Origin: Actinomycetes bacterium
GTDB taxonomy: Bacteria > Actinomycetota > Thermoleophilia > Gaiellales > Gaiellaceae
DNA: 31,170 nucleotides
Direction of reading: 5' to 3'
Assembly: GCA_031425855.1 (NCBI GenBank)
Contig: JANPKC010000131.1
Span: 1-31,170 of the forward strand
The notes beneath the pieces are model-generated. The model was not told the DNA's origin. It saw nothing but the letters and a program-made list of their open reading frames with translations, and did not search any database. Shown here one piece after another: positions 1 through 4,839 of the stretch; position 1 is the stretch's first letter, and each line of letters opens with the position of its first letter. A program made the translations under genes and the position numbers.

Positions 1-1434
1 GACGAGCGCGTCGATGTCCGCGAGATCGGTCACCTGGGGCCAGTCGCCCGACCGGGCCGCGACCGGAACGATCAGGTGCCCGTAGCGGGCACGGATCCGC
101 TCGTGCTCGTCCCCTTCCTCCCGTCGGCTCCGGGCGGCAAGAGCGAGCCCGCCGAGCAGGAGCAGCACCGCGATCCCGAGCAGCGAGACACGGCGTGCCG
201 TCGCGACGGAGAGCGAGAGCGCGCCGACGGAGACCTTTGCGGGCGCGACACGGGTGCCGCTGCCGGCCTCGCGCGGCGCGAGCGGGCCGACTCCTTCGCC
301 GGCCTCGAGGTTCGGCTGCAGGCGGAGATCGCCGAGGTCGAACGAGAGCGCCGGAGCGAACGTGGCGTCGACCGCTTCGCGCCCGACCCTGCCCGCGACC
401 TCGACCCGCGGCAGCACCGCGACGGTGTACGCCGTCTGGCCGGAGCCGGTGAGCTCGCGCACGTCCTCGACGATCCGCTCGATCCTGGCGAGGTCGAGGA
501 CGCCCGAGACCGTCGAGCCACCCTCGGCGAACGGGCGCTCGAGCGCCAGCGGCAGCACCCGCTCCCAGCCTCGGCCGTCGCTGAGCCGCGCGTCGAGCGC
601 GATCCTGCCGCCCGCGTCGACGGGCAGCTCCGACTCGAGCCGGTAGCTGAAGGACACGCGCAGGCGGGGAACGAGACGCAGGAAGACGGGCTCGCCCGTG
701 CTCACCTGGCCGTCGGGATACGCGGCGTTCCGGGACACGCGCGCCTCGTACTCGAACCGGCCCTGGTGCGCGTAGGCCGCCTCGACGGTCTCTGTCCCGG
801 TCAGCGGGCGGCCGAAGGAGATGGCCGCAAGCGCGATGCAGGCGAGCGCCGCCGCCGCGAGGCCGGTGAGGAGAGGCTTCAGCTCGTCCCGCACGGCGCG
901 CGAAGGTCGCGGGGTCGGGGCGACCCGCGGCTTCGGAGCAGCCAGACGGCCGCCTCGCCGAACGGCCGCACCGGCGCCGAGGCCGCCGCCGAGCGCGATC
1001 AGCGTCACGAGCCCGACGAGGAGAGCGCTGTGCAGGGGCTGGCGCAGCCACTCGGTGACTCGTCCGACGGCGGGCGCGGTCACCCAGAGGCTGCCGACGA
1101 TCTGCTCCTCGGTCGGGCGCTCGGCGTCGAGGAAGCTGTTGTTGTCGCCCTTGAGCACGTAGCGGCTGCCGTCGACGCCGACGATCCGGTGCAGCACCTT
1201 CGAGCCGAGCTCGCGGCTGTCGTAGAGGACGACGTCCCCGACGCGGTAGGAGCTGCGCGCCCGGACGACGGCGAGGTCGCCGCGATGGAGCTTCGGCTCC
1301 ATCGAGCTGCCGACGATGATCGCGTACGACGTGCCGCCGCCGACCTGGGCCGGCGCGAAGAACAGCCAGGCGCCGACGAGCGCCACGGCTGCGACGAGGC
1401 CGCTGAGGAGCCCGGTGATGCGTCCCGTGCTCAT
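1..1434 (-). CDS. sipW: SipW-type (Ser-His) signal peptidase I fused to a large membrane-anchored C-terminal region (DUF5305-like); 3' end runs off the window
   Basis: Translated by hand; absent from the ORF track. Open frame from ATG 1434 (alternative ATG 1440) to position 1: MSTGRITGLLSGLVAAVALVGAWLFFAPAQVGGGTSYAIIVGSSMEPKLHRGDLAVV...GDVVLY...KVLHRIVGV...VLKGDNNSFLD. It has the GSSMEP serine box, HRIV (His rather than Lys) and KGDNN..D boxes of SipW/Sec11-type peptidases. These are followed by two hydrophobic segments, a ~200 aa beta-like domain, another TM segment and RIRARYGHLIVPV. The DUF5305 resemblance is recalled, not searched. Confidence 0.85.
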   Translation of the reverse strand, partial: MSTGRITGLLSGLVAAVALVGAWLFFAPAQVGGGTSYAIIVGSSMEPKLHRGDLAVVRARSSYRVGDVVLYDSRELGSKVLHRIVGVDGSRYVLKGDNNSFLDAERPTEEQIVGSLWVTAPAVGRVTEWLRQPLHSALLVGLVTLIALGGGLGAGAAVRRGGRLAAPKPRVAPTPRPSRAVRDELKPLLTGLAAAALACIALAAISFGRPLTGTETVEAAYAHQGRFEYEARVSRNAAYPDGQVSTGEPVFLRLVPRLRVSFSYRLESELPVDAGGRIALDARLSDGRGWERVLPLALERPFAEGGSTVSGVLDLARIERIVEDVRELTGSGQTAYTVAVLPRVEVAGRVGREAVDATFAPALSFDLGDLRLQPNLEAGEGVGPLAPREAGSGTRVAPAKVSVGALSLSVATARRVSLLGIAVLLLLGGLALAARSRREEGDEHERIRARYGHLIVPVAARSGDWPQVTDLADIDALV

Positions 1435-1499
1435 GTGCATGGAGAGGAGGTGGCCGGGCGAGGCATGGTCGTCCTCGTCCCGGCCGTTCCCGTCGAGCC

Positions 1500-1874
1500 C
1501 TACGAGGTCGCGATCACGGACAGCTGGTCGGCCGTCGTGATGGCGATGTCGGGGCTGAAATCGCAGGTGACGTTGACGCCGCCGGAGATCGTGCAGGAGG
1601 TGTACGTCGTCGAGCCGCTGACGATCTTCGCCTTCGCCGTCGCCGCGTTCGCGTTCAGGGTGAAGGTCATCGAGTCGATGTCGCTGGGAGTGGTCGCGTT
1701 CAGCGTGTAGGCGATCGCCGACACCGTGTAGCCGCTGATCGTGCCGCTGCCCGAGCCTGCGCTCGAGCTGGGAACCGTGTTCGTCGCCGTGAAGGCGTAC
1801 GCGCCTGTCGCCAGGGCTGCCGCCACGACCAGGGCGCCGAGGATCCGGCTCCGTCCGATGAGTGCCTGCTTCAT
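1500..1874 (-). CDS. Secreted Ser/Thr-rich protein with SipW-class signal peptide (TasA/CalY-like fibre subunit candidate)
   Basis: 124 aa. GGAG RBS upstream of the ATG. Basic N-region, hydrophobic core and GAYA|FTATNT resembling the GTWA|AF-type SipW cleavage context. Two C-terminal Cys. Directly upstream of the SipW-like gene. Confidence 0.75.
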   Translation of the reverse strand: MKQALIGRSRILGALVVAAALATGAYAFTATNTVPSSSAGSGSGTISGYTVSAIAYTLNATTPSDIDSMTFTLNANAATAKAKIVSGSTTYTSCTISGGVNVTCDFSPDIAITTADQLSVIATS

Positions 1875-1892
1875 GTCGTGTACTCCAAGTCA

Positions 1893-1953
1893 GGGGAGGG
1901 GGGTCACGCGTTCCGGGTAGGTTTCGGCGGTTTCGGGTGACGGACCCTCCCCC
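1893..1953 (-). promoter_or_regulatory. Imperfect inverted repeat (long hairpin) in the leader of the secreted-protein/sipW operon
   Basis: Minus-strand arms GGGGAGGG-UCC-GUCAC and GUGAC-CC-CCCUCCCC. The loop contains CCGAAAC twice. Confidence 0.5.
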
Positions 1954-1976
1954 GGAAGGGGTACTTTGCGCGGGAT

Positions 1977-3296
1977 CTAGGCCAGGACGCCGGGTAGAGC
2001 CGCGATCAGATCGCTCGCGATCAGGCCTCGCTGCGGCAGGCCGCGCGCGGCGAGGCCGTGAGCCGTGGCGGCGGCGGCTGCGGCGAGGCGGGGCTCGAGC
2101 CCCTTCGCGAGAAATGCGGCCACGATGCCGGTGAGCACGTCGCCGCTGCCGGCGGTCGCGAGCCCCGGCGCCTCGGCCACGGAGACGAGCACACCCGTGC
2201 CCGGCGCCGCGACGATCGTGTCGGCGCCTTTCAGCAGGCAGACGCAGTCGAAGCGCTCGGCGGCCCGCCGCGCCGCCTCCAGCCGGTGCGCGGTCACCCA
2301 GGTCGAGTCCTCGCCGAGCAGCCGCGCCAGCTCGCCGGCATGAGGCGTCAGCACGGCACGCGAGCCCCAGTCTCCCGGCTCGAGCTCGTGGAGCGCGTCG
2401 GCGTCGAGGACGAGCGCGTGCCCGCCCAACCCCAAGAGGTCGCCGCGCAGGCGCTTCGCGGCGTCGTCGCGGCCGAGCCCGGGCCCGATCGCGAGCACGT
2501 CCGCCTTGGCGGCCGCGGCCTCCGCATCGGCCCACGTCAGCTTGACCGGCTCGAGCAGCTTCGCCTCGACGACGGGAAGCGACGGCTCGGGAACGGCGAC
2601 GGCGACGTAGCCGGCATCGGCGCGGAATGCCGCTTCGGCGGCGAGGCACGCGGCGCCTGTCATCCCGGGCGCTCCGCCGACGACGAGCACCGAGCCGGCG
2701 CTGTACTTGCTGTCCTCCGCCCGCTTGCGCGGGACGAGCTGGAGGATCGCCGGCGTCACGAGCGCGTGCTCCGTCTCGCGCTGCTCGAGCCCGATGTCGG
2801 CGACGACGATCTCGCCCGCGTGGAAGAGCCCGGGCGCGACGGCGAGCCCGAGCTTGCGGCCGTGGAACGTCACGGTCAGGCTCGCCTGCACCGCGGCGGC
2901 CGCGATCTCGCCCGTCGATGCGTCGACGCCGGACGGGACGTCGACCGCGACCACGGGCGCCTCGGCCGCGTTGATCCGCTCGATCGTGGCCGCCGCTTCC
3001 TCGCGCGGCTCGCCGAGGAAGCCCGTGCCGAAGAGCGCGTCGACGATCACGTCCGCCTGCTCGACGGCGGTCGTCTCGACCGCGTCGCGGCCCTCCTCGC
3101 GGAGGATGCGGGCCGCGATCCGGCCGTCGCCCCCGTTCGAGCCGCCGCCGCAGACGACCGCGATCCGCCGTGCGTCAGGGAATCGCTGCATCACCTCGCG
3201 CGCGACCGCGGCGCCGGCCCGCTCCATCAGCTCCGACGCGTCGCGGCCCTCCTCCGCGGCACGCGCCTCTACGGCTGTGTAGAGGGACTCACGCAT
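1977..3296 (-). CDS. nnr: Bifunctional NAD(P)H-hydrate epimerase/dehydratase (YjeF family)
   Basis: LMERAG, GGGSNGGDG, IVDALFGTG and VDVPSG in the YjeF_N part; GPGLGR, LDADAL, VLTPHAGE and LATAGSGDVLTG in the carbohydrate-kinase part. Confidence 0.93.
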   Translation of the reverse strand: MRESLYTAVEARAAEEGRDASELMERAGAAVAREVMQRFPDARRIAVVCGGGSNGGDGRIAARILREEGRDAVETTAVEQADVIVDALFGTGFLGEPREEAAATIERINAAEAPVVAVDVPSGVDASTGEIAAAAVQASLTVTFHGRKLGLAVAPGLFHAGEIVVADIGLEQRETEHALVTPAILQLVPRKRAEDSKYSAGSVLVVGGAPGMTGAACLAAEAAFRADAGYVAVAVPEPSLPVVEAKLLEPVKLTWADAEAAAAKADVLAIGPGLGRDDAAKRLRGDLLGLGGHALVLDADALHELEPGDWGSRAVLTPHAGELARLLGEDSTWVTAHRLEAARRAAERFDCVCLLKGADTIVAAPGTGVLVSVAEAPGLATAGSGDVLTGIVAAFLAKGLEPRLAAAAAATAHGLAARGLPQRGLIASDLIAALPGVLA

Positions 3297-3657
3297 CGTC
3301 GACGACGGCGACCGCGGAGGCGAGCTCGCGCGAGTGCGTCATCGAGAGGTCGATCCCGCCGGCCCCGACCCGCTCGGCCCAGGCGGCGACCCGTCCGGAG
3401 AGCCGCACCGACGGCTTCGGCCGCCCGGCGATCTCGATGTCCTTCCACGCGAACGCCCGCGCGACCCCGAAACCGAGCGCCTTCCCGACCGCCTCCTTGC
3501 CCGCGAACCGGCCCGCGTAGCTCTCGGCCGGGTTCTTGCGCGAGTCGCAGTACTCCTGCTCGGCGGCGGTGAAGCAGCGGTCCCTGAAGCCCTGGTAGCG
3601 CTCGAGGGAGCGGCGGACGCGCTCGATCTCGATCAGATCGACGCCGACGCGCGTCAC
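3289..3657 (-). CDS. acpS: Holo-[acyl-carrier-protein] synthase
   Basis: GTG start overlaps the HAD stop (GTGA). Motifs VGVDLIEIERV, FTAAE, AGRFAGKEAVGKALG and LSMTHSRE. Confidence 0.93.
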   Translation of the reverse strand: MTRVGVDLIEIERVRRSLERYQGFRDRCFTAAEQEYCDSRKNPAESYAGRFAGKEAVGKALGFGVARAFAWKDIEIAGRPKPSVRLSGRVAAWAERVGAGGIDLSMTHSRELASAVAVVDDA

Positions 3658-4430
3658 AGCGAGCGGTCGATCCAGTCCGGGACGTTCGCGATCGAGCTCA
3701 GCACCGCGTCGGGCACCGTCGACGAGCGGTCGAGCGCCTCTGGCCTGAACTTGCCCGTCCGGAGCAGGAGCGTCTTCATCCCGAAGAGCTGCGCGCCGCG
3801 AACGTCCTGCTCGAGATCGTCGGTGACCATCCACGTCAGCTCCGGCTCGGCGTCGAGCGCCGCGAGGGCGGCGGCGAAGCACGCGGCGCTCGGCTTCCCG
3901 ATCACGGTCGCCTCGACCCCCGTCGCGTACTCGAGCGCGGCGACGAAGGCGCCGCCGTCCAACATCGGCCCCCGAGCGGTCTGCCACCACGGGTTCTTGT
4001 GCAGGCAGAAGAGGTCGGCGCCCGCCTGGATCTCGGAGAACGCGCGGGCGAGGTTCATGTGGCTGAAGACCTGGTTCGGCTCGGTCGTCTCGTCGCAGCC
4101 GCCGACGAGCACGGCATCTGCGCCCTCGCCGACGAGCTCGATCCCGGCGAGGTCGGGCACGATCGCCGACATGACGAGGCCGTAGACGCGCCGCCCGCCG
4201 AGCTCCTCCGCCGCCGCGACCGGGGTCGTCTGCAGCTCGGAGTCTTCGAGCTCGAGCCCCATCTCCCGCAGCTCGGTCGCCAGCTCGGCCCGGGAGCGCG
4301 TCGAGTTGTTCGTGACGAAGCGGAGCCGGTGCCCGTCGGCGCGCAGGCGGGCGATCGCCTCCACGGCACCCGGGATCGGCTCGCCGGAGACGTGGAGGAC
4401 GCCGTCGACGTCCAGCAGAATGGCGGCCAT
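3654..4430 (-). CDS. HAD-superfamily subfamily IIA hydrolase (LHPP/NagD-like)
   Basis: MAAILLDVDGVL (motif I), FVTNNS (motif II), IGKPS (motif III), MVTDDLEQDVRGA (motif IV) and LRTGKF. Start placed at ATG 4430. Confidence 0.88.
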   Translation of the reverse strand: MAAILLDVDGVLHVSGEPIPGAVEAIARLRADGHRLRFVTNNSTRSRAELATELREMGLELEDSELQTTPVAAAEELGGRRVYGLVMSAIVPDLAGIELVGEGADAVLVGGCDETTEPNQVFSHMNLARAFSEIQAGADLFCLHKNPWWQTARGPMLDGGAFVAALEYATGVEATVIGKPSAACFAAALAALDAEPELTWMVTDDLEQDVRGAQLFGMKTLLLRTGKFRPEALDRSSTVPDAVLSSIANVPDWIDRSL

Positions 4431-4839
4431 GGAGCGGGATGCTATCCGGGTGACACGTTCAGTCCTACTGCCTCTCGCCGAGATCGAGCTGCGCTTCTCG
4501 CGCTCGAGCGGCCCGGGCGGCCAGCACGCGAACACGGCGGAGACACGCGTCGAGGCGATCCTGGACATCGACGCGTCGTCGGCCCTGACCGAGGTGCAGA
4601 AGCGGCGCGTGATCGCGAAGGCGGGGCCGACGCTGCGGGCGGTCGCGCAGGACGAGCGGAGCCAGTGGCGGAACCGCGAGCTCGCGGTCGAGCGACTCGT
4701 CCTGCAGCTGCGCGAGGCGTTGAAGGTGGAGCGCCGCCGGGTTGCGACGAAGCCGACCGCGGCGTCGCGCCAGCGGCGGCTCGACGCGAAGAGACGCCGC
4801 TCCGAGGCGAAGCGCCTGCGCCGACCCCCGTCCGAATAG
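4429..4839 (+). CDS. arfB: Alternative ribosome-rescue peptidyl-tRNA hydrolase (YaeJ/ArfB)
   Basis: FSRSSGPGGQHAN (GGQ), QDERSQWRNRELA and a basic C-terminal tail (RRVATKPT...RRLDAKRRRSEAKRLR). Confidence 0.92.
   Translation: MERDAIRVTRSVLLPLAEIELRFSRSSGPGGQHANTAETRVEAILDIDASSALTEVQKRRVIAKAGPTLRAVAQDERSQWRNRELAVERLVLQLREALKVERRRVATKPTAASRQRRLDAKRRRSEAKRLRRPPSE

Follow-up and report, generated by a model that had tools for sequence, protein, structure and literature searches.

A signal peptidase-DUF5305 fusion and two secreted proteins with a shared amino-terminal tag: a three-gene module of uncultured Actinomycetota and Chloroflexota that may build a surface fibre

Introduction

Does the minus-strand operon found at the left end of contig JANPKC010000131.1 build a fibre at the bacterial surface? 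The window, which is the whole stretch of DNA that was analysed, corresponds to the entire contig (C131; 31,170 bp) of a 355-contig metagenome-assembled genome (MAG) of 2.69 Mb and ~72% G+C. Near-identical proteins of the window genes are found in MAGs labelled Gaiellaceae. The two genes concerned code a small secreted protein of 124 amino acids (aa) and, directly after it, a signal peptidase with a large membrane-bound extension, a pair that the initial annotation had proposed to be a TasA-like fibre system. They are the first two-thirds of a module of three genes that is present in uncultured Actinomycetota and Chloroflexota. Its large protein is an S26B signal peptidase fused to DUF5305 (TafG-type) and its third gene, carried by another contig of the same genome (C134), codes a RTX protein with an amino-terminal tag akin to that of the small protein. 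It is quite likely that the fusion is a dedicated peptidase and that the two tagged proteins are its cognate substrates; the complete explanation, in which the module matures and builds a peptidase-linked surface fibre, comes close to an even chance without reaching it.

Several fibres linked to S26B peptidases, namely those of TasA, TapA, AbpA, AbpX and Tafi, assemble by strand donation (PMC9674648, PMC10151520, PMC9245690, PMC12337348). The Bacillus subtilis TasA fibre is held by amino-terminal donor-strand complementation and is started by the TapA amino terminus (PMC9674648, PMC10151520). DUF5305 is the TafG protein of the haloarchaeal Tat-fimbriae locus, where it is found beside the S26B peptidase TafD, whose gene deletion abolishes both TafA processing and fimbriae (PMC11821415); a role of TafG as helper of TafD is predicted (PMC12337348). 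Peptidases fused to DUF5305 are already listed for bacteria in the former work (PMC11821415). The AbpX preprint describes DUF5305 as a putative peptidase accessory laid out as an ecto-sandwich, two transmembrane (TM) segments and a cytoplasmic alpha/beta domain, and likens a DUF5305-peptidase fusion of Anaerolinea thermophila to the eukaryotic signal peptidase complex (bioRxiv 10.64898/2026.01.04.697558). The fusion has thus been described before, and published work reads it as an accessory rather than as a fibre anchor. No description of the small tagged subunit family, of its RTX partner or of their co-varying tag was found in the literature searched.

The S26B peptidase and its DUF5305 extension

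The peptidase reading frame starts either at ATG 1440 (480 codons) or at ATG 1434 (478 codons), the latter being probably the true start as in relatives, and stays open up to base 1; the gene is incomplete because contig C131 ends there. Its last 57 residues are coded by C134:1-174(+) and show 83% identity to residues 481-533 of P0123. The latter is a full-length orthologue, 79% identical to the window peptidase, that was used as a stand-in for the structure model and for the DUF5305 score. The window protein aligns without gaps to its residues 1-478. As the window copy ends at P0123 residue 478 and the C134 tail starts at residue 481, two codons (six bases) are missing between the contigs. 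Full-length relatives of the peptidase have 529-534 aa.

The amino-terminal 150 residues are covered by the profile of archaeal/endoplasmic reticulum-type signal peptidase I, TIGR02228 (67.1 and 70.1 bits, cut-off 51.85). Motifs GSSMEP, HRIV and KGDNN carry Ser46, His84 and Asp99, respectively, and Asp105 is also present. None of the four columns varies among 49 full-length homologues, the Ser-His pair and two Asp replacing the Ser-Lys dyad of bacterial enzymes. Human SEC11A/C was matched in a search of PDB sequences, with catalytic residues aligned, and the fold of the peptidase domain in the P0123 model matches Streptococcus pyogenes SipA (Z 12.7), Escherichia coli LepB (Z 11.8) and SEC11C (Z 10.7). 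The SipW equivalog of Bacillus, NF046067, is reached with 31.9 bits only against a cut-off of 190: the window peptidase belongs to the same class and is not an orthologue. The genome also codes a signal peptidase of the LepB type (TIGR02227, 145 bits), on contig C174. Since this enzyme is present and no other S26B peptidase is found in the genome, the window peptidase is an extra enzyme.

Four TM segments are predicted by hydropathy at residues 11-29, 139-157, 190-208 and 412-430. In the AlphaFold2 model of P0123, whose predicted local distance difference test score (pLDDT) is 87, a TM helix (3-26), the peptidase beta-domain (35-120), a second TM helix (133-153) and a disordered Arg/Pro loop (155-177) are followed by a third TM helix (183-207), a beta-sandwich ectodomain (212-409), a fourth TM helix (410-439) and a cytoplasmic alpha/beta domain (443-512). 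The whole PF17231 (DUF5305) profile matches P0123 residues 290-510 with 39.8 bits (cut-off 29), while the window copy, whose last 59 residues are missing, has no match at E<=1. The succession of TM segment, beta-sandwich ectodomain, TM segment and cytoplasmic alpha/beta domain fits the description of DUF5305 in the AbpX preprint (bioRxiv 10.64898/2026.01.04.697558). Only generic sandwiches (RbmA, factor XIII barrel, Z ~8) were found for the ectodomain in the PDB, and no SPC22/23-like match is listed, in a search that used a model of more than 400 residues as query and for which the domain by itself would be the fairer one. The fusion is common: 1160 cluster representatives were found at E<=1e-30 among the 1.8 billion searched, the listed ones being mostly full length.

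The gene structure proposed in the initial annotation proved accurate. Both genes lie on the minus strand at the coordinates that it gave, the 124-aa protein is as it was quoted and the gene of at least 478 codons that follows has 478-480 codons open to base 1. The three motifs, the TM segments and the ~200 residues between TM3 and TM4 are as described. The enzyme is a Ser-His peptidase of the SipW/Sec11 class, as shown by its TIGR02228 score; the fused part, for which DUF5305 had been suggested as a search target, is identified as such by the score of the full-length orthologue. The supposition that the operon continues past position 1 was borne out by C134, which starts two codons on with the peptidase tail followed by the RTX gene, a third member with the shared tag that the initial annotation had not included.

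The small protein: a predicted immunoglobulin-like core and no known family

The small gene has a GGAG ribosome-binding site 8 nucleotides (nt) 5' of its ATG. Its product displays a predicted Sec signal peptide with a basic n-region, an h-region and A-Y-A at residues 25-27, ahead of the presumed cleavage site. The A-x-A rule holds for type I signal peptidases. From this pattern, the precursor would be cleaved after A-Y-A, yielding a mature protein of ~97 aa in which Thr, Ser and Ala account for 49 of the 98 residues counted, His is absent and Met is found once. Homologues at E<=0.01 number 696, mostly with 80-94% identity and from Gaiellaceae MAGs and soil metagenomes; identity is 81-94% among the matches listed. 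The invariant positions of the family are a Phe, a Gly, a Tyr and two Cys. The latter, Cys94 and Cys104, are invariant across 27 homologues and probably form a disulphide bond.

An AlphaFold2 model of the monomer (27-row alignment, mean pLDDT 76) features the signal-peptide helix (residues 8-25), low confidence to residue ~45 and a pLDDT of ~90 over residues 45-124, with a six-strand immunoglobulin (Ig)-like sandwich at residues 51-124. Residues 28-44 are modelled as unstructured beside this core. Neither the protein nor 26 homologues were assigned to a family of Pfam or NCBIfam, including the SipW-cognate models, Peptidase_M73 and DUF1102, and the family profile has no match in PDB sequences. 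Foldseek found nothing at E<=0.001 in the PDB. The best score in an exhaustive VIA-align search, Z 5.7, is to unrelated generic sandwiches of Ig, FN3, carbohydrate-binding module (CBM) and CopC type; structures of TasA, AbpA, AbpX, Taf, thread and CanA/cannula proteins are absent among the Foldseek and VIA matches listed, although a weaker unlisted match is possible. AFDB clusters and the ESM Atlas hold only unnamed relatives from Actinomycetota and Chloroflexota. The part of the initial annotation that did not stand is therefore the TasA-like label in the sense of homology: in the lack of a family or specific fold match, it describes an analogy of operon logic and not a family assignment. Within that analogy, the small protein is the candidate major subunit.

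Two further members of the family were observed. C159:2840-3166(-), equivalent to locus L003:1492-1818 on the minus strand, codes a 108-aa paralogue that is 46% identical to the small protein and keeps the tag and both Cys. A divergent homologue (22% identity) with a degenerate tag is coded by L032:4193-4555(-), where no peptidase is detectable within 4 kb.

A RTX protein completes a module conserved across two phyla

The product of the third gene matches HemolysinCabind (PF00353) at residues 87-120 with 32.4 bits (cut-off 23), and its relatives are likewise above the cut-off. It has four Cys and a conserved carboxyl-terminal C-E-T-Q-I-Q. The alanine racemase gene (alr) follows on C134 from nucleotide 570. 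The gene order in relatives found on long contigs is yjeF, small protein (123-125 aa), peptidase (529-534 aa), 130-aa protein and alr.

Conservation of the module was assessed in a scan of 185,579 species-representative genomes with a profile built from a 10-row alignment. It yielded 239 relatives of the small protein, of which the best 80 loci were analysed. These are MAGs throughout, from Gaiellaceae, other Thermoleophilia, Acidimicrobiales and unclassified Actinomycetes on the Actinomycetota side and from Anaerolineales, Chloroflexia and Dehalococcoidia on the Chloroflexota side. A lack of co-occurrence of small protein and peptidase had been set beforehand as an observation that would refute the initial annotation, and it was not seen: the peptidase gene lies directly downstream of the small gene in 75 of the 80 loci. 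It codes a full fusion in 62 of them, a peptidase without DUF5305 in 8 and a peptidase cut by the contig end in 5; the remaining 5 loci have none, two or three of them with too little downstream sequence. The RTX partner is found in 70/80 loci, and the eight loci whose peptidase lacks DUF5305 keep both the small and the RTX genes. Among 13 strong loci fetched by hand, 12 (the exception is L032) have the S26B peptidase gene immediately downstream, most then followed by the RTX gene. A search with the single protein found the family in 6 of 151 genomes of the class and a profile search in 14 of 401 genomes of the phylum. Nine genomes of this phylum sample code the full-length peptidase-DUF5305 fusion, eight of which also match the small-protein profile.

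Two Actinomycetota loci, L022:1873-4062(-) and L027:3462-4388(+), have the RTX part in frame behind the peptidase open reading frame (ORF), with its own hydrophobic segment and tag. The peptidase of L027 has no DUF5305. The arrangement may reflect self-processing or an internal start that was not recognised. These in-frame fusions tie the three proteins together again.

The two secreted proteins share a co-varying amino-terminal tag

The sequence of the small protein after A-Y-A is F-T-A-T-N-T-V-P-S-S-S-A-G-S-G-S-G-T-I-S-G-Y, whose family form is F-T-A-T-N-T-V-P-x-S-x-A-G-x-G-x-G-x-I-S-G-Y. The RTX protein on C134 has A-L-A followed by A-T-N-A-V-P-A-S-N-A-E, and the C159 paralogue of the small protein has L-T-A-S-N-T-V-A. 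In a six-frame scan of the 2.69-Mb genome the hexapeptide class of the tag occurs 39 times overall and is found after a hydrophobic stretch in exactly these three proteins. The tag is also the most conserved part of the small protein: in 19 non-redundant family members the top residue has a frequency of 0.64 at residues 27-50, versus 0.53 for the folded core and 0.39 for the signal peptide. Its residues alternate between apolar and polar (F-T-A-T-N-T-V).

The tags of the small and RTX proteins vary together. Over a 14-residue window, the identity between them is 7.3/14 within a locus versus 5.5/14 between loci (10 loci, windows cut by hand, without L007 and L010, which are close relatives from the Gaiellaceae; permutation p = 0.0005, with 0.045% of permutations reaching the observed value). 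Individual loci display the same behaviour. In L023 (3294-7195, -), which codes the RTX protein and three small-protein paralogues, T-N-T-V-P is replaced in all four by T-N-(T/S)-I-x-G-V-x-x-P, and in L031 the small and RTX proteins both have A-A-N-S-V-P. The tag is a candidate recognition element for the peptidase, a candidate donor strand, or both.

Expression hints and the spacer hairpin

The 59-nt spacer between small and peptidase genes codes a GC-rich RNA hairpin, with a minimum free energy (MFE) of -38.4 kcal/mol for 1425-1515(-) (91 nt; z -2.2). Hairpins of different sequence are found at the equivalent position in close relatives L010 (z -3.2) and L007 (z -1.8), and the hairpin is absent in families in which the two genes abut. 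It has no U-tail, and a scan for promoters and terminators found neither a canonical terminator in the spacer nor a sigma-70-like promoter. The hairpin may act as an attenuator or may stabilise the 3' end of the small-gene mRNA.

Among public sequencing runs, none of those that contain the whole 2-kb stretch is a RNA run. The DNA runs that match it best are freshwater-sediment metagenomes, which may be the source of the MAG. Part of the small gene is present in 16 metatranscriptome runs. In four metatranscriptome runs of wetland and soil, from four studies, that were compared to window positions 1-3300 at >=80% likeness, short contigs tile positions 1492-1899 end to end at 87-99% identity, and the peptidase gene and yjeF match only short partial pieces. 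An abundant small-gene mRNA would fit this contig pattern, which hints at it weakly. The pattern and the hairpin that parts the small gene from the peptidase gene are also in keeping with an abundant major subunit.

Features and neighbouring genes

The coordinates of the module are compiled in Table 1. The genes upstream of the module, at window positions 1977-4839, are syntenic with those of relatives and code a yjeF-type NAD(P)HX epimerase/dehydratase (1977-3296, -), a holo-ACP synthase, a HAD hydrolase and a protein with a RF-1 domain (ArfB-like). They look unrelated to the module; note that their domain names were taken from Pfam matches of the relatives.

Table 1. Position of the module genes and of their parts in the window and on contig C134.
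Feature	Position	Strand	Basis
Small secreted protein gene, 124 aa	1500..1874	-	ORF and translation; stop codon 1500-1502
Predicted Sec signal peptide, residues 1-27	1794..1874	-	Hydropathy; helix 8-25 in model
Conserved amino-terminal tag, residues 28-50	1725..1793	-	Most conserved segment; no stable structure in monomer model
Six-strand Ig-like beta-sandwich core, residues 51-124	1503..1724	-	AlphaFold2 model; invariant Cys94/Cys104
GC-rich RNA hairpin in 59-nt spacer, small gene/peptidase gene	1446..1490	-	MFE and z-score
S26B signal peptidase and DUF5305 gene, residues 1-480	1..1440	-	Open frame to base 1; end lost at contig edge
Catalytic signal-peptidase domain, on the outer side of the membrane	1000..1383	-	TIGR02228 profile, invariant residues, fold matches
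Catalytic residues Ser46; His84; Asp99; Asp105	1303-1305; 1189-1191; 1144-1146; 1126-1128	-	
DUF5305 membrane and ecto part	118..873	-	TM3 817-873; ~200-aa beta-sandwich ectodomain 208-801; TM4 118-207
Start of cytoplasmic alpha/beta carboxyl-terminal domain of DUF5305	1..108	-	P0123 model residues 443-512; remainder on C134
Third gene, 130-aa tagged RTX protein	C134:161-553 (locus L012)	+	PF00353 match; start overlaps peptidase stop by 14 nt

Surface fibre or monomeric secreted proteins

In the explanation that is preferred here, the small and RTX precursors would both be exported by Sec, and the fused peptidase would recognise the shared tag region and cut just ahead of the tag. The freed amino-terminal strand of a small subunit would insert into the incomplete sandwich of the next one (donor-strand complementation), giving a thin extracellular fibre or matrix. 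The RTX protein, of low abundance, would donate the same strand and thereby initiate or cap the polymer, a role like that of TapA towards TasA. A fibre formed by strand donation is a tentative proposal, with the balance leaning somewhat against it; it is put forward because the tag is conserved and disordered, the core is six-stranded, the tag residues alternate and the characterised S26B-linked systems are analogous. That the module represents an undescribed class of donor-strand fibre is rather doubtful. Such a class would combine a ~97-aa Ig-like subunit unrelated to those of the TasA, Taf, Abp and chaperone-usher systems, a single-chain S26B plus DUF5305 'mini signal-peptidase complex', a tagged calcium-binding RTX starter or cap, and a tag serving both as address and as strand.

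Several points weigh against a fibre built in this way. Polymerisation is drawn from analogy and from features of the modelled monomer rather than from a multimer model, and neither homology nor specific fold similarity to known fibre subunits was found in sequence, PDB and AFDB searches. LepB could perform the cleavage, whose site is predicted, as is the cognate processing. The gene of the C159 paralogue is isolated: it lies between dapB and dapA in opposite orientation and has no peptidase gene in its vicinity. Gene conversion inside the operon could explain the co-variation of the tags, which was measured in phylogenetically related loci. The tag is two residues farther from the predicted A-x-A in the small than in the RTX protein, and at least one of the two cleavage predictions may therefore be off. 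Regarding expression, the RNA runs were picked by the small gene and kept as contigs, whose depth cannot rank genes; diverged flanks escape the 80% threshold and DNA carry-over is possible in RNA runs. Note that a complex prediction with three copies of residues 27-124 (Ala27 is one residue before the presumed mature end) scored 0.15 versus a mark of 0.32, which is evidence neither way.

Dedicated processing might serve a different end, in which no fibre is formed and the two products are monomeric secreted or wall-associated proteins, one for binding or coating and the other for calcium binding, with the tag as recognition or sorting signal. The linkage and the tag evidence fit this alternative equally well, the homotrimer prediction gave no multimer support and the generic Ig/CBM-like sandwich occurs also in adhesins and carbohydrate-binding modules. 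What speaks for strand donation instead is the length of the conserved segment, as the ~23 most conserved residues found past the cleavage site exceed the usual need of peptidase recognition, and the absence of structure in the tag residues beside a six-strand core in the monomer model. In addition, the characterised S26B-linked small-protein systems all form fibres (PMC9674648, PMC12337348, PMC9245690). Two monomeric proteins are a serious alternative that is nevertheless held, on the whole, to be doubtful. A third possibility, that the small protein is a periplasmic metal-binding protein of the CopC/CrdA type tied to nearby copper genes, is highly improbable. CrdA (Z 5.4) and CopC (Z 5.0) are among its weak fold matches and relatives have HMA/CopZ, P-type copper ATPase and CsoR-like genes beyond alr. 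These Z values are, however, no higher than those of dozens of unrelated sandwiches, alr separates the module from the copper genes, and it is the peptidase and the RTX protein that are conserved alongside the small protein. The CopC-like reading was rejected because the mature small protein, with no His and one Met, lacks the ligand residues.

If a surface fibre is indeed built, the role of DUF5305 in it has to be considered. The initial annotation suggested that the fused domain tethers or nucleates the fibre, a single protein being responsible for processing and anchoring. The fusion does place a beta-sandwich ectodomain of ~200 aa beside the active site, and a sortase, LPXTG, SLH or other separate anchor is not part of the conserved module. 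Yet this ectodomain has neither the tag nor a specific pilin-like match, and both substrate genes are kept in the 8/80 loci whose peptidase is devoid of DUF5305. Furthermore, archaeal Tafi and AbpX loci, which are equipped with anchors of their own, code DUF5305 and the peptidase as a pair of distinct genes, and DUF5305 is interpreted there as a peptidase accessory (PMC11821415, PMC12337348, bioRxiv 10.64898/2026.01.04.697558). The anchoring role claimed for it is therefore unlikely.

The module is compact, and relatives of its small gene are found in at least 239 species-representative genomes and in many soil metatranscriptomes. The groups that carry it include the Gaiellaceae, other Thermoleophilia and the Anaerolineales, which rank among the bacteria of soil and sediment that are most abundant and have least been brought into culture. 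If the fibre explanation is correct, the small protein would represent a new family of subunits among the chaperone-free, peptidase-linked donor-strand polymers of bacteria and archaea, and would provide a self-assembling building block of very small size. For studies on the function of DUF5305, also in the archaeal Tafi and AbpX systems, the single-chain fusion is convenient.

Comparison with known systems

The module shares its logic with the tapA-sipW-tasA operon of B. subtilis. A dedicated peptidase of the endoplasmic reticulum type is encoded between two secreted substrates, one abundant (as is proposed here for the small protein) and one minor that shares the amino-terminal strand region, and the genes of minor partner and peptidase overlap by a few bases (14 nt here). 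The differences are in the components. Neither substrate resembles TasA or TapA in sequence or specific fold, and the gene order differs. The peptidase is no SipW equivalog and carries a fused DUF5305, which Bacillus lacks. The subunit has ~97 aa versus ~234 aa, and the minor partner is a RTX beta-roll instead of an Ig-like protein.

The archaeal Tafi and their Sec-dependent relatives likewise have a S26B peptidase and DUF5305 adjoining small secreted beta-sandwich proteins (PMC11821415, PMC12337348). The Tafi pilins TafA and TafE assemble by strand donation, which is proposed for the module by analogy. Unlike in Tafi, peptidase and DUF5305 are joined in one polypeptide, the substrates are of the Sec type, both precursors of this genome being devoid of a twin-arginine motif, and they match neither DUF1102 nor the Taf structures. 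Equivalents of TafB, TafC and TafF are missing from the module, which has the RTX partner instead.

The loci of AbpX also code a dedicated signal peptidase I and a DUF5305 accessory, together with the subunits of the fibril and with minor or tip proteins (bioRxiv 10.64898/2026.01.04.697558). Calcium takes part in AbpX assembly; in the module, calcium binding would reside in the separate RTX protein and not in the subunit. The AbpX-linked peptidases have ten TM helices, whereas the module peptidase has two plus two from DUF5305, and the module subunit is outside the AbpX/TasA superfamily by the searches run. An analogy can be drawn, from the monomer model, to the pilins of chaperone-usher systems (Fim/Pap), which have an incomplete Ig-like sandwich and an amino-terminal extension with alternating apolar residues. 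The module differs from these systems in that it has no chaperone, usher, outer membrane or sequence similarity to them.

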